Assembly (NCBI GenBank): GCA_014816185.1
Contig: GCA_014816185.1_4095.1
DNA length: 64,000 nucleotides
Reading direction: 5' to 3' (one strand)
From: a phage
Shown here piece after piece: positions 8,698 through 19,297 of the stretch. A program made the position numbers and the translations under genes. Every line of letters begins with the position of its first letter. The stretch's first letter is position 1. The notes under the pieces are model-generated. The model saw nothing but the letters and a program-made list of their open reading frames with translations, was not told the origin of the DNA and did not search any database.

Positions 8698-8775
8698 AAT
8701 TCCTCCTTTATTCATTATACTATATTTAATACAAATAAGAAAGCCAGTACAAAGTACTGGCATAGTTTTATAGTA
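8698..8775 (-). promoter_or_regulatory. MLPF-family upstream cassette (hairpin + TATAAT box + AGGAGG)
   Basis: minus-strand order: GCCAGTAC-loop-GTACTGGC, TTTCTTATTTG, TATTAAATATAGTATAATGAATAAGGAGG, ATG. Confidence 0.55.
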
Positions 8776-9885
8776 TTATTTCGGCATTGTAATTGCAGAC
8801 CATGAGTTCGTGGTAATAGGACCTGGTACATACAAAAAAGAACCACAAGCATAAATTTGATTATTACCATCAAATACTATACTAAAATGTGCACATGTGT
8901 ATAATGATGATTTTTCTGGGTTGTAATTATCTAAAGTTAGTGTATTGGTGAATCTACTCAAACCACCTCCCGAACCATTTCTACCAAATTCACCAGTACT
9001 GTATATCTTTCCTTCGGTTGTTGCGTACATATTAACATATGAAGTCGCACTTGATTTTGATATTTTATGTATCTTACTATCAATAGTAGTGGAGTTAAAT
9101 GCAAATGGATATACTTGTGTGTTCGTTGTAATACCGTTACCAAGTTGACCAATATACTGCCAACCTGCGTTGTATATATTGCTGGCTGAATAAGCAAGAG
9201 TACCAGTACTGTTACCACCAAATAGTTTAACACTTGTTAACCTGCTTACTAGTGTAGTATACTGTCCTGGACTTACGCCAAGTGAACCATACCCACTGCT
9301 CCCGCAACCGAGAAGTTCATTATTTGATGTTAATATTAATGTGTTATTCTGTGTACCCAATATATCAAGAACTGTATTAGCTCCGGTATTAATAACTGAA
9401 ACAAAAGTACTCTGAGCCGTGGAATACCCACCACCGAGTGAATAGTTACCATTCATGCCTCTACCATAAACAATCGAACCACTAGCATCAACGTAGTGCA
9501 TTGTATCTGCACCAATTGATATCATTTTAATATTAGATATATGTGGAAATGAAGAAGTAACATTCAAACCACCCAACGGAATCATAGTATTTCCTGTGCC
9601 TAATTGTGTGGTAACTCCATGCATTATGAATTCTTCACCCTTGAGATAAAGAATATTGTACGCCCCAGCCCATGCATCAGTAACACCTTCTGAAATTAAT
9701 ATCCAAGTATTTCTTGTTGCTGTATTTTCAACGTTTAACTGAAAATACGTATTAACCCCACAACCATAAAGTGAGCCATCACCATAGAGGACGTACAAAT
9801 TATCAAGACCGCACAGTACTTTCTTTATCTTTGGAGCTTCAGGTGCAATATTTCCGTACTTAATCATTCTAACAAAAGGTAACAT
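8776..9885 (-). CDS. MLPF-propeller family protein 2
   Basis: starts MLPFVRMIKYGNIAP at 9885; G-x-N-x-x-G-Q-L-G-like blades. Confidence 0.65.
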   Translation of the reverse strand: MLPFVRMIKYGNIAPEAPKIKKVLCGLDNLYVLYGDGSLYGCGVNTYFQLNVENTATRNTWILISEGVTDAWAGAYNILYLKGEEFIMHGVTTQLGTGNTMIPLGGLNVTSSFPHISNIKMISIGADTMHYVDASGSIVYGRGMNGNYSLGGGYSTAQSTFVSVINTGANTVLDILGTQNNTLILTSNNELLGCGSSGYGSLGVSPGQYTTLVSRLTSVKLFGGNSTGTLAYSASNIYNAGWQYIGQLGNGITTNTQVYPFAFNSTTIDSKIHKISKSSATSYVNMYATTEGKIYSTGEFGRNGSGGGLSRFTNTLTLDNYNPEKSSLYTCAHFSIVFDGNNQIYACGSFLYVPGPITTNSWSAITMPK

Positions 9886-9956
9886 ATTTCCCTCCTTATT
9901 CATTATACTATATTTAATACAAATAAGAAAGCCAGTATCAAGTACTGGCCTATATT
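9886..9956 (-). promoter_or_regulatory. MLPF-family upstream cassette
   Basis: same conserved element as 8698-8775. Confidence 0.55.
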
Positions 9957-10694
9957 TTAGACTGAATTGTTAGGATAATATCTCCCACGTCCCCATATTA
10001 TTCGCACAGCACCACCACCAGCAGCCGTATAAGAAAAATTATCCCATATACTACCACCACCACCATACATCTTACCAGCACCACCACTACCAGCACCACC
10101 ATTATATGAACCATCGTATCTACCGCCAATACCATTAGCACCTTGAACAATGATACCAGTACCACCACCCGTACCAATGAACGAGGTATTATAGAATGCA
10201 CCACCACCACCGCCGCCCCCAGCACCATTTTCACCAGTGATTGCATCTCCGTTACCACCTTTACCAGTGTAGCCACCAGCACCACCACCAATGACTGCAC
10301 CACCACTTACACCAGCGTTGCCCCCATTACCACCACCATCATTAATAGCGTTAGCAGCTTTCCCACCTAGTCCACCAACCCTATATTCACCAGTGAAGCT
10401 AACACATAGTTTTTCAGTTCCACGATATAAACCGTTTTCAACTGGTGTAGTAGTGTTGGGATGTGTAAGAGAAACACTTAAGTACTCACCACTAGTAACC
10501 GGAATATTATTACGCCACGATAAGCCGCCACCAGCACCACGTTGACCACCCGGCGAAATAACACATACTGATATTTCGGTAACGCCAGCAGGAACTGTAA
10601 ATTGTGTTGTTCCTATTGTCGTGATTAATTGTTCACCATGTGGCTTATATTCAATTTTATTCCCGTACTTAACCATTCTTCCAAAAGGTAACAT
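9957..10694 (-). CDS. MLPF-tagged glycine-rich protein
   Basis: MLPFGRMVKYGN N-terminus followed by long Gly-rich low-complexity body (GGGNGGNAGVSGG..GAGGGGGGGA); 245 aa. Confidence 0.6.
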   Translation of the reverse strand: MLPFGRMVKYGNKIEYKPHGEQLITTIGTTQFTVPAGVTEISVCVISPGGQRGAGGGLSWRNNIPVTSGEYLSVSLTHPNTTTPVENGLYRGTEKLCVSFTGEYRVGGLGGKAANAINDGGGNGGNAGVSGGAVIGGGAGGYTGKGGNGDAITGENGAGGGGGGGAFYNTSFIGTGGGTGIIVQGANGIGGRYDGSYNGGAGSGGAGKMYGGGGSIWDNFSYTAAGGGAVRIIWGRGRYYPNNSV

Positions 10695-16905: not shown

Positions 16906-18015
16906 TTATTTTGGTAAATCAATTTTAGTAAAGACTGCAACATCCTCGATTGCACCTGGAATGGCGTAATACGATCCAGTACTATACACATCTCCATTTT
17001 TGGTTAATATCGATGTCAAACCATCACTAAAAAGAACATCCCTAATCTCACTAACTTCAACGGGTAATTGTAAATTGGTAGCACTATATATAGCACCAGT
17101 TTGAGAATTGTTTAATCCCAAACCACGGTTCGCCCCAACACCCTTCTGATATGTACTAGTAATTACCATTTGTGTAGCAGTATTTAAGGCAGGTGAATTC
17201 GTCATAAACAACGGAGAACTATTAGGCAAAGTACTTAAAGGAACTGCACGGAATGTAGTCGTACCTGAACTAAGAAAGTTTGGAGTTTGACCACATACGA
17301 AATATGATGTACCATTATAGTAATTTAATGCATTACCACCAATGGCTGCATCGATTACACCAGAACTACGCAATCCCCAAGTGTTAATTTGTGTTTGGTT
17401 CCCCGTACCATGCTGCCCACTACTATTCCATCCAGAACTATATAGCTTATTATCTAATGTAAGATACATACTATCATTCGCATTGGTCATTACTTTACGA
17501 ACGTTCGTAGCACATTGAGTTAATGTGTAAATTGATGATGAACCAATACCCAAAGAACCACGATATCCATTATCTCCTGCACCATAGAGTACTGAATTAG
17601 TGCTAAGTACAAATATTAAACCATTTGTACATACAATATTAGCAATTTCACTTACTGGTATAGCATTGGTAAACCAATTAGTTCTTTCAACTAATACAGT
17701 ACTGTAAGAAGTAGTTGTAGAAGATGAGAACCAGTACGTTTGACCTGATGTCCATATCGTATTATCATTTTTAATAATAACAAGTGTACGATCACCCACG
17801 AAAAAATTAGAAACATCTGCACTTACTAATGTCCACGAAGACACCGTGTTGGTATTACCATTTCCAGATTCACCACCTTGATTTCTACCTATGTAATATA
17901 AATCATGTGAATCAGTCAATAAGAATTGGCCTTGGGTAGAAGCACCAACTTTAATTATTTTTTTAGGACCAGGGACAATATTTCCATACATAATCATTCT
18001 TCCAAAAGGTAACAT
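16906..18015 (-). CDS. MLPF-propeller family protein 9
   Basis: start at MLPFGRMIMYGNIVP (18015); no cassette upstream, only 8 nt after stop of 18024..19226, so co-transcribed; GWNSSGQHGTGNQT motif. Confidence 0.6.
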   Translation of the reverse strand: MLPFGRMIMYGNIVPGPKKIIKVGASTQGQFLLTDSHDLYYIGRNQGGESGNGNTNTVSSWTLVSADVSNFFVGDRTLVIIKNDNTIWTSGQTYWFSSSTTTSYSTVLVERTNWFTNAIPVSEIANIVCTNGLIFVLSTNSVLYGAGDNGYRGSLGIGSSSIYTLTQCATNVRKVMTNANDSMYLTLDNKLYSSGWNSSGQHGTGNQTQINTWGLRSSGVIDAAIGGNALNYYNGTSYFVCGQTPNFLSSGTTTFRAVPLSTLPNSSPLFMTNSPALNTATQMVITSTYQKGVGANRGLGLNNSQTGAIYSATNLQLPVEVSEIRDVLFSDGLTSILTKNGDVYSTGSYYAIPGAIEDVAVFTKIDLPK

Positions 18016-18023
18016 ATTCCCTC

Positions 18024-19226
18024 CTATTGTTGCCATAACTGCGATGGCATTAATGTTAGTGTAGTAATACTATAAGTGCCATCTGGCAATCTACCACCAT
18101 TTCCATTCCAGCCACCACATGCATATAATTTATAATCTTTAGTAATTATTATGGTTCTGCTCCAATCTTTAGATGCCATAAGAACATTGTCATAACCACC
18201 ACTTATTGCACTAAGATTAAAAATATTCCAAGTTCTAACTAATGTATTAGTTCCATTACCTTCTTGACCATATGAGTTAGCACCACTACTTCTAACATAT
18301 GGTGCGTATTGTGCCATAGGTGCACCAATTGATGCATTTCCCATATTACTTGGACAAATAAAAGTACTGTACTTACTTACATCAACCGTGACCGATGTGT
18401 TCCTAATTGGTGTTAGCTGATTTACCGATGTAGTCGTACCATTACCAGCTTGTCCAGAACTGTTAGCCCCGCTATAATATACAGACCCACCAGTAGTAAA
18501 CCACCAAGTAACATCGTATGTAGTACTAATATGTTCTACATTACTAATCACGAATTTGTTCAAATATACAACAGAACTACCACCACATCCACTTTCACCA
18601 AAGTTATCCTTACCACAAAACCATGCATCTTTATTTGATTTGATATAGTGCGTTCCTTGTAATGAACATGCCATATGTGTAACTTCACCCATATTAGTCA
18701 TAACTGTGAGTGTAGGGATGGAATTTTTATTCCCAGAGCCACATTCACCATTAGTATTTCTTCCACACGCAATTACTCTACCATCGGTTAATAATATTCT
18801 AGTACTTTCACCTATATATACACTCTTGATCATATTAGCCATAACACCTATTTTATTAAATGCAACAGTAACATCAGTCCATGTTGTCAAATAACCATTA
18901 ACAGGTGTTGCATCTCCATAATCAGAAAATGCACCAACCGACCCAGTGTAGTATATTTTATTATCCAAATCAATCATCAATGAACCTTGAACACCAAGCC
19001 AAAAGGCTGCACAGTTCCTTGCAAGTACTGTAAATGACGAAACTGCTGCTGAATTCCCAAGACCAAATTGATAAAAGTTATTACTACCATAACCATATAA
19101 AGTATTAGTTGGGTTATGGAGATACATACAGTTTGTATAATGTTGTTGTAAAACATCTGAGAACTCTACAGGTTCTGGACCTGGTGCAATATTTGCGTAC
19201 TTAACCATTCTTCCAAAAGGTAACAT
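18024..19226 (-). CDS. MLPF-propeller family protein 10
   Basis: MLPFGRMVKYANIAP; GANSSGQAGNGTTT motif. Confidence 0.6.
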   Translation of the reverse strand: MLPFGRMVKYANIAPGPEPVEFSDVLQQHYTNCMYLHNPTNTLYGYGSNNFYQFGLGNSAAVSSFTVLARNCAAFWLGVQGSLMIDLDNKIYYTGSVGAFSDYGDATPVNGYLTTWTDVTVAFNKIGVMANMIKSVYIGESTRILLTDGRVIACGRNTNGECGSGNKNSIPTLTVMTNMGEVTHMACSLQGTHYIKSNKDAWFCGKDNFGESGCGGSSVVYLNKFVISNVEHISTTYDVTWWFTTGGSVYYSGANSSGQAGNGTTTSVNQLTPIRNTSVTVDVSKYSTFICPSNMGNASIGAPMAQYAPYVRSSGANSYGQEGNGTNTLVRTWNIFNLSAISGGYDNVLMASKDWSRTIIITKDYKLYACGGWNGNGGRLPDGTYSITTLTLMPSQLWQQ

Positions 19227-19297
19227 ATTTCCCTCCTTTATTCATTATACTATATTTAATACAAAAAGAAATGCCAGTATCAAGTACTGGCATAATA
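19227..19297 (-). promoter_or_regulatory. MLPF-family upstream cassette
   Basis: conserved element. Confidence 0.55.

Follow-up and report, generated by a model that had tools for sequence, protein, structure and literature searches.

A repeated hairpin, TAAATA and ribosome-site cassette in a tandem array of RCC1-like genes of an Asteriusvirus jumbo coliphage: a probable T4-type late transcription-unit boundary

The window analysed here, a 64,000-nucleotide stretch of phage DNA (GenBank assembly GCA_014816185.1, contig GCA_014816185.1_4095.1), comes from a jumbo coliphage of the genus Asteriusvirus (PBECO4/121Q/SP27/phAPEC6 group). Its minus strand carries a tandem array of 12 open reading frames (ORFs) whose products start with MLPF, and a near-identical intergenic cassette of about 70 nt, the subject of this report, recurs between them. 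The ATGs of these ORFs lie at 20476, 19226, 18015, 16835, 15624, 14404, 13144, 11908, 10694, 9885, 8697 and 7455. Eleven of the genes are intact (7528–20476), as defined from ORFs, Pfam and PHROGs matches and paralogue identity: ten encode RCC1-like beta-propeller proteins of 369–400 residues, and one encodes an unrelated glycine-rich protein of 245 residues. The last member (7032–7455) is a remnant, in which a 52-residue MLPF ORF ends near 7297 and RCC1-like sequence then continues in another frame (ORF 7032–7367). Its orthologue is likewise split in 121Q (genes 234/235) and in SHEFM2K.

Pfam matches to RCC1, RCC1_2 or WD40_RLD were found in seven of the eight array proteins tested, and the PHROGs matches of the array are phrog_4219, which covers the RCC1-like members, and phrog_4474. 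The paralogues share 23–45% amino-acid identity, the sole exception being a short 27-residue match at 52%, and their gene bodies share 52–56% nucleotide identity. The glycine-rich protein (9957–10694, minus strand) matches phrog_4474, contains no RCC1 repeats and shows no similarity to the neighbouring array proteins in BLAST comparisons. Its gene shares the cassette and the MLPFGRMVKYGN N-terminus with the RCC1-like genes, so the regulatory and N-terminal block is joined to no fewer than two unrelated kinds of protein. Mass spectrometry found six array proteins of phAPEC6 in virions (PMC7247149, Table 1), and gp1 of GAP32, a single-copy homologue from another genus, is a virion-associated structural protein (PMC5259590). 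As the array products are virion proteins, their genes are expected to be late.

Within 8698–19297, nine minus-strand spacers of 70–78 nt (most of about 71 nt) are near-identical, as the preliminary description of this region had stated. Over their last 64 nt the pairwise identity is 86–100% (mean 91%), and the differences fall mostly in the loop of a hairpin. The order on the coding strand is GCCAGTAC-loop-GTACTGGC, TTTCTTATTTG, TAT, TAAATA, TAG, TATAAT and GAATAA(A)GGAGG, followed after four to five nucleotides by the ATG. A 25-nt cassette core gave nine matches at two or fewer mismatches, against 0.00 expected from shuffles, and the stem motif CCAGTR-N3-10-YACTGG gave 11 against 0.10 expected; the repeat is genuine and not a product of chance. 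A hairpin with a loop is present as described, but the loop length is not fixed: it is 3 nt, or 5 nt where the stem has 7 bp, and a hairpin pattern with a 4-nt loop therefore misses real copies. The repeat passes beyond the ATG into the first 15 or so codons, giving a conserved block of about 120 bp that returns every 1.2 kb or so.

The copy at 8698–8775 is representative, with the hairpin at 8743–8761, the T-tract at 8732–8742, TAAATA at 8723–8728, TATAAT at 8714–8719, AGGAGG at 8702–8707 and the ATG at 8695–8697; its predicted RNA fold has an energy of −16.8 kcal/mol (z = −2.5). Canonical copies, here called type 1, were identified from the core match and the fold at 9886–9956 (fold z = −3.65), 10695–10765 (before the glycine-rich, non-RCC1 gene), 11909–11980, 14405–14475 and 15625–15695. 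By the same evidence, the type 1 copy at 13145–13216 has a 9-bp stem with the loop TCA, and that at 19227–19297 has the T-tract variant ATTTCTTTTTG. The copy at 16836–16905, whose core has two mismatches, has TATAAC in place of TATAAT and keeps TAAATA. Hairpin, TATAAT and AGGAGG had been ascribed to every copy; the hairpin, a promoter-like box and the ribosome site are indeed there each time, but TATAAT fails at this copy, before ATG 16835.

The range earlier given for the cassettes holds for these nine, but two diverged copies lie just outside it, both also on the minus strand. Before the first array gene (20477–20579), the sequence reads GGTAAATA-TGA-TATAAT-GAATAAAGGAGGG, the hairpin is degenerate, and the region folds no better than shuffles (z = −0.3); it opposes a canonical sigma-70-like promoter of plus-strand genes (TTGACA-17-TACTAT, 20526–20554). 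The last cassette (7456–7527), which precedes the 52-residue gene remnant, reads GCCAGTGC-CTT-GTACTGGC with one G.U pair, then T7, CCTAAATA and GGAGG; it is without TATAAT and folds at −19.4 kcal/mol (z = −3.9). The same stem also occurs on the plus strand at 6355–6374, as TCCAGTACT-TAA-TAGTACTGGA between the ORFs 5975–6346 and 6389–7051. There TGTATAAGGAG-N5-ATG comes next, both T-tract and TAAATA are missing, and the hairpin may be a relic, or else the stem may be used here a second time.

The hairpin has the features of an intrinsic (Rho-independent) terminator: a GC-rich stem of 7–9 bp including five G-C pairs, a loop of 3–5 nt and an immediate T-rich run, U-rich in the RNA, at 6–23 nt past the upstream stop codon. 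A terminator scan over 15 kb returned 19 sites against 5.8 ± 2.7 expected, the majority being cassette hairpins, and full spacers fold with z scores of −2.3 to −3.9. In the GenBank record of G17 (MK327931), the orthologous hairpins already carry terminator annotation by ARNOLD, with dG values of −10 to −12.8. The scan and this annotation support the proposal that the hairpin is the terminator of the upstream gene. The cassette differs from other intrinsic terminators in that its U-tract is interrupted and its stem is identical in dozens of copies. An Rfam search gave two sub-threshold chance matches and nothing else. An IMG/VR scan with CCAGTAC-N3-8-GTACTGG gave 120+ unrelated single matches; the 14-base palindrome is too unspecific, and these results were not used.

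The covariation check that had been suggested for the stem was made on 37 distinct hairpins from seven phages. It gave a compensatory change at the pair at the foot of the stem, which is G-C in 29 hairpins, A-T in three (the compensatory case), G.T in three and A.C in two, but not elsewhere; pairs 2–7 are almost invariant or show G.U. Changes on one side of the stem comprise 11 that give G.U on the sense strand and four that give A.C (p about 0.06, with copies that are not independent), an excess that lends weak support to a hairpin acting as sense-strand RNA. Before gp1 of GAP32, a hairpin of wholly different sequence stands at the equivalent position and is followed by T7, which speaks for structure rather than sequence being what is conserved over longer distances.

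The loops are hypervariable and the stems fixed. Several loop variants form reverse-complement pairs, namely AGA/TCT, TCA/TGA, AAA/TTT and CTTGA/TCAAG (examples of loop positions in the window are 16889–16891, 13199–13201 and 8751–8753). Some of these pairs occur in the same orthologous context: gene 4 of the window has AGA and its G17 counterpart TCT, and the SP27 counterpart of the cassette at 13145–13216 has the flipped loop TGA in the same surroundings. The probability that three pairs of this kind arise by chance among seven distinct 3-nt loops is about 8e-4, which suggests flip-flop inversion across the palindrome through template switching or a cruciform. These four inverted pairs, together with an invariant stem beside hypervariable loops, crossovers that fall at cassettes and the stem copy on the other strand at 6355–6374, would suit a hairpin that acts chiefly in DNA, as a cruciform or a recombination or nuclease target resembling repetitive extragenic palindromic (REP) elements, spread or homogenised for that function and terminating transcription only incidentally. 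We regard such a role as very improbable: the one-sided changes favour sense-strand G.U over A.C, the T-tract always follows and only on the sense strand, the GAP32 homologue has its unrelated hairpin at the same place, and ordinary homologous recombination over about 120 bp would suffice for the breakpoints.

The promoter of the cassette is most likely of the T4 late type with TAAATA as its core, rather than a sigma-70-like promoter with TATAAT, judging from motif counts and conservation. The window contains 29 copies of TAAATA where 140 ± 13 would be expected, an avoidance of about fivefold, and 11 of the 29 lie in cassettes, each 31–34 nt upstream of an MLPF ATG. TATAAT is not avoided and occurs at chance frequency (159 against 148 ± 13 expected). 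In about 70 copies of the cassette, taken from seven phages, TAAATA is constant in every one that bears a hairpin, while TATAAT gives way to TATAAC, TATGAT or TAATAA. The region upstream of GAP32 gp1 contains the hairpin, T7, GGTAAATA, 32 nt and ATG-MLPFSRIIQYGNIAP, with no TATAAT. In the structural region of phAPEC6, TAAATA lies 18–80 nt upstream of the ATG in 18 of 35 genes, against a background of 2.25% per interval (p = 7e-21); the −12 position is variable at these sites, one of which, upstream of the virion protein gp250c, is the ATTAAATA of the cassette.

The cassette box resembles T4-type late promoters (TATAAATA, gp55-dependent; Geiduschek and Kassavetis, 2010, PMC2988020) as an 8-bp A/T box near −10 with no −35 element, and its ATTAAATA matches TATAAATA at six of eight positions. 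T4 late promoters have an A/T-rich segment directly downstream of the box (PMC2988020); in the cassette the A/T-rich TAGTATAATGAATAAA follows. As with the late motif ATAAATA that the Rak2-like phages CBB and GAP32 are reported to use (PMC5259590), the box stands upstream of virion genes in a phage group with a gp55-like sigma factor, and its core is shared with other late genes. That factor was found in the close relative phAPEC6, where gp237c belongs to the gp55 family of late sigma factors by PHROGs (phrog_234, E = 8e-18; phrog_12791, E = 3e-154); Pfam and PDB sequence searches with gp237c gave no late-sigma match. The cassette departs from the T4-type late promoter in having T, G or C and not A at −12 and in carrying TATAAT at a fixed distance of 3 nt. 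In Aeh1, too, the −13/−12 positions differ and the TAAATA core is kept (PMC2988020). The promoter class had been left open in the preliminary description on the ground that the box is no perfect T4 late or MotA consensus; that observation stands, but a T4-type late assignment is now the most likely one. Two other candidates were rejected. A MotA-type middle promoter would rest on TTTCTTA, which, compared by eye with the consensus (a/t)(a/t)TGCTT(t/c)A, is a poor fit; its distance from the −10 is 16 nt and not 11–13 nt. The TGAAACG −35 'middle' motif of CBB and GAP32 (PMC5259590) is absent from the cassette.

The analysis shows how the sequence is built, how it departs from chance, how it is conserved among phages and where the recombination breakpoints lie; from these we infer termination, transcription start, late-sigma dependence and timing as follows, and we consider it fairly probable that the cassette is a boundary between transcription units with a late promoter. 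The ancestor would have been a single gene that already bore the terminator, the late promoter, the ribosome site and the MLPF N-terminus. The 8-bp GC-rich hairpin and U-tract would end the upstream mRNA or form its stable 3′ end. A T4-type late promoter with the core TAAATA (ATTAAATA), 14 nt further on, would be read by host RNA polymerase with a gp55-like late sigma factor, and the A/T-rich TAGTATAAT would serve as the melting and initiation region. The transcript would then have a leader of about 20 nt, with AGGAGG 4–5 nt upstream of the ATG. Each of the divergent virion-protein genes would thus be a self-contained expression unit, as had been proposed, with its own short late transcript from an identical signal, the exception being the pair at 18016–18026 described below. 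The block of about 120 bp would also serve as a substrate for homologous recombination, homogenising cassettes within a genome and allowing the insertion, deletion, replacement and reordering of whole genes between related phages.

Several points weigh against this interpretation. TATAAT is perfect in nine of the 11 window copies, and its 3-nt gap from TAAATA is fixed in both cassette types (the second type, from EJP2, is described below), so that it may act as a sigma-70 −10 element, alone or in addition. This gene family alone has the composite TAAATA-N3-TATAAT; at other late genes no such TATAAT is seen. As an alternative, the cassette would hold a host sigma-70 '−10 only' promoter, used by unmodified host polymerase early or throughout infection, and TAAATA would be mere A/T-rich sequence. 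The perfect hexamers and their constant spacing speak for such a promoter, which we nonetheless consider unlikely. At 17 nt upstream of TATAAT stands TTTCTT, which is no usable −35 element, and there is no extended −10 (TGn). The sigma-70 scan never called TATAAT a −10 at any cassette, its sole in-cassette match being CTGGCA-17-TATAGT before ATG 19226. TATAAC copies have lost the critical −7 T, and neither the cassette of the last gene nor GAP32 retains the hexamer at all. Genome-wide, TATAAT is as frequent as chance would predict, the array encodes virion proteins, and the leader would begin virtually at the ribosome site. The earlier reading of TATAAT as the promoter box is not supported, in view of the missing −35 and extended −10, the loss of TATAAT from several otherwise intact copies, and the invariance of TAAATA, its genome-wide avoidance and its sharing by bona fide late genes of this phage group.

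Also unfavourable to a late-promoter boundary is the departure of ATTAAATA from the preferred ATAAATA at −12, where all cassette types have T, G or C, so that this may be a weak promoter. A late sigma factor is known from a relative that is 97–99% identical over homologous array blocks, and not from the window, and no mapped RNA 5′ or 3′ ends were found in the literature for any Asteriusvirus. As to the hairpin, the double change is confined to one base pair because the stem sequence is near-invariant, and the identity of the stems could come from gene conversion and not from selection on structure. Finally, the U-tract is interrupted (UUUCUUAUUU), and termination may therefore be partial.

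Weak termination of this kind would also fit if the array were read as one long late transcript in which the hairpins are attenuators or elements of RNA processing or stability and the box is no promoter. Co-transcription is evidently workable at one junction of the array: at 18016–18026 (minus strand) the upstream stop TAG (18024–18026) shares bases with AGGAGGG, the ribosome site of the gene that follows, and neither a hairpin nor a promoter-like box is present. This junction, real as reported and the only one of its kind in the array, presumably joins a co-transcribed and translationally coupled gene pair. The neighbouring array of genes of about 60 codons is likewise packed without cassettes, and the stem copy at 6355–6374 has no T-tract. 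A single long transcript is nevertheless quite improbable in our judgement, given that the strongly avoided TAAATA stands at the right distance in every cassette and that the single-copy GAP32 gp1 has the same layout after its upstream gene.

The cassette-less junction is shared with G17, SP27 and SHEFM2K, whereas in 121Q and phAPEC6 the orthologue of its downstream gene has its own cassette. Cassette-less junctions were found, besides that of the window, at 4339 in SP27, 2666 in 121Q, 4384 in SHEFM2K, 17720 and 2990 in EJP2 and 353 in G17. At all of them the stop codon of the upstream ORF (TAG or TAA) is fused to the ribosome site, as TAGGAGG or TAAGGAG. The fusions are consistent with deletions that took out the hairpin and the promoter, and their sequence suggests that these began within the end of the upstream gene and reached as far as the TAA in GAATAAGGAGG of the cassette.

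The preliminary description also proposed that homology for recombination is provided by the cassettes, and this is strongly supported by blocks of at least 88% identity between the window and SP27, SHEFM2K, G17, 121Q and phAPEC6. Within the array, block ends fall either 19–50 nt into the conserved N-terminal codons or 10–76 nt upstream of the ATG, inside the cassette; the few ends that do not are confined to the margins of the array or to sequence beyond it (close to the truncated last gene, or in the flank past the first gene). Gene content and order vary among phages that are otherwise 95–99% identical. With the window genes numbered 1–11, the order is 1', 2, 3, 4, 5, 6, 9, 8', X, Y, 10, 11 in SP27 and new, 2, 3, 7', 5, 4', 6, 9, X in G17. 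EJP2 has a second cassette type, ACCAGTAC-TGAAATAC-GTACTGGT, T7 and GTAAATA-CAT-TATAAT, with a longer leader and GGAG. All 12 of its cassettes are of this type 2, including those of orthologues that are 73–88% identical in amino-acid sequence to window genes with type 1, while paralogues about 25% identical within one genome have a common cassette. Cassette type thus tracks the genome and not the gene, which points to homogenisation by recombination or gene conversion. Recent duplication as the source of cassette identity is rejected, the gene bodies being only about 25–35% identical. The cassettes are therefore recombination linkers that evolve in concert, as the cassettes of T4-type phages discussed below do. 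In CMSTMSU (MH494197), type 1 and type 2 cassettes are mixed in one array, and this phage may be a recombinant between lineages; its record, which is marked 'unverified' and has many frameshifted genes, was used qualitatively only.

The coding part of the repeat comprises the first 15 codons, which encode MLPFxRMxxYGNIAP (for example 8653–8697, minus strand; repeat families D2 and D3, codon analysis). Codons 2–4 (TTA CCT TTT) are fixed even at synonymous sites in 53–54 of 54 distinct sequences, probably owing to their place in the translation-initiation region or to gene conversion. Synonymous variation is found further on, with TAC/TAT 31/23 at codon 10, GGG/GGA 33/19 at codon 11 and CCT/CCA 22/19 at codon 15, which indicates that the peptide itself is under selection at the protein level. 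The peptide is also present in GAP32 gp1, and a role in virion attachment or targeting is plausible. A bolder idea is that the cassette and the MLPF codons form a dedicated exchange module, functionally comparable to an integron or a tail-fibre N-terminal adaptor, that swaps, reorders and amplifies beta-propeller and other domains of the virion surface during co-infection. Newcomers would gain both late expression and a virion-anchoring peptide, and the hairpin, extruded as a cruciform or hairpin, would be a crossover hot spot with the loop inversions as its footprint; this is conceivable but rather doubtful.

The nearest known systems are the promoter-early stem-loop (PeSL) cassettes of the T4-type phages RB49 and phi1 (Arbiol et al., 2010, PMC2839356). 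Both are repeated intergenic modules of about 70–100 bp that hold a stem-loop terminator, a promoter and a ribosome site before the ATG, and both lie in a hypervariable genome region, where they provide homology for whole genes to be inserted, deleted or replaced between close relatives. In the array, too, the stem-loop is part of a repeated module with ribosome site and ATG, and the differences between relatives are bounded by cassettes. PeSL elements have a consensus sigma-70 early promoter with −35 and −10, whereas no cassette here has one and the promoter is probably of the late TAAATA type. Their GGGG..CCCC stems lie within or beside the promoter, while here the hairpin is upstream and has a U-tract. 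They flank unrelated ORFans, in contrast to paralogous virion proteins, and only here does the repeat run into a conserved N-terminal coding segment. Since the defining sigma-70 early feature is absent, the cassette works like a PeSL but is not one. Morons in the sense of Hendrix, autonomous units of promoter, gene and terminator, share this arrangement of a separate promoter and terminator for each gene; they are unrelated genes acquired by illegitimate recombination with no shared flanking repeats, whereas here the flanks are conserved and recombine. No paper was found that describes the cassette, assigns its promoter class or links it to the shuffling of the array, nor was anything specific found on Asteriusvirus promoters or transcriptomes; the sole prior annotation is the terminator features of G17. 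Taken singly, the components (intrinsic terminator, probable T4-type late promoter, Shine-Dalgarno sequence) are nothing unusual, and the whole is a real, moderately novel variant of T4-type cassettes.

The analysis assigns a probable late promoter class and operon structure to a large, hitherto unexplained paralogue array present in all Asteriusvirus genomes examined, and it suggests that modular shuffling through regulatory cassettes in the manner of PeSL is not confined to early ORFans of T4-type phages and also acts on late virion-protein genes of jumbo phages. The array is a clean natural example of concerted evolution, in which a regulatory and N-terminal block of about 120 bp is uniform beside coding sequences with identities down to about 25%. 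For engineering of these phages, the cassette offers a ready-made insertion and expression site, and the conserved N-terminal peptide is a candidate virion-targeting tag.

Two further features of the region are of minor interest. In folds of full spacers, such as 9886–9956 (minus strand), the pyrimidine tract CUUUCUUAUU past the hairpin pairs with the ribosome site AAUAAGGAGG. In these models the ribosome site might be occluded in read-through transcripts and free in transcripts started at the cassette, although the pairing is G.U-rich and may be trivial. Beyond the first array gene, a second tandem family of about 25 small paralogous genes (59–78 residues), with one 219-residue ORF between them, occupies 20580–25382 on the plus strand and begins after the TTGACA-17-TACTAT promoter. 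Gaps of 1–12 nt separate its genes, none of them holding a hairpin or promoter cassette, and the family thereby provides an internal contrast to the RCC1 array.

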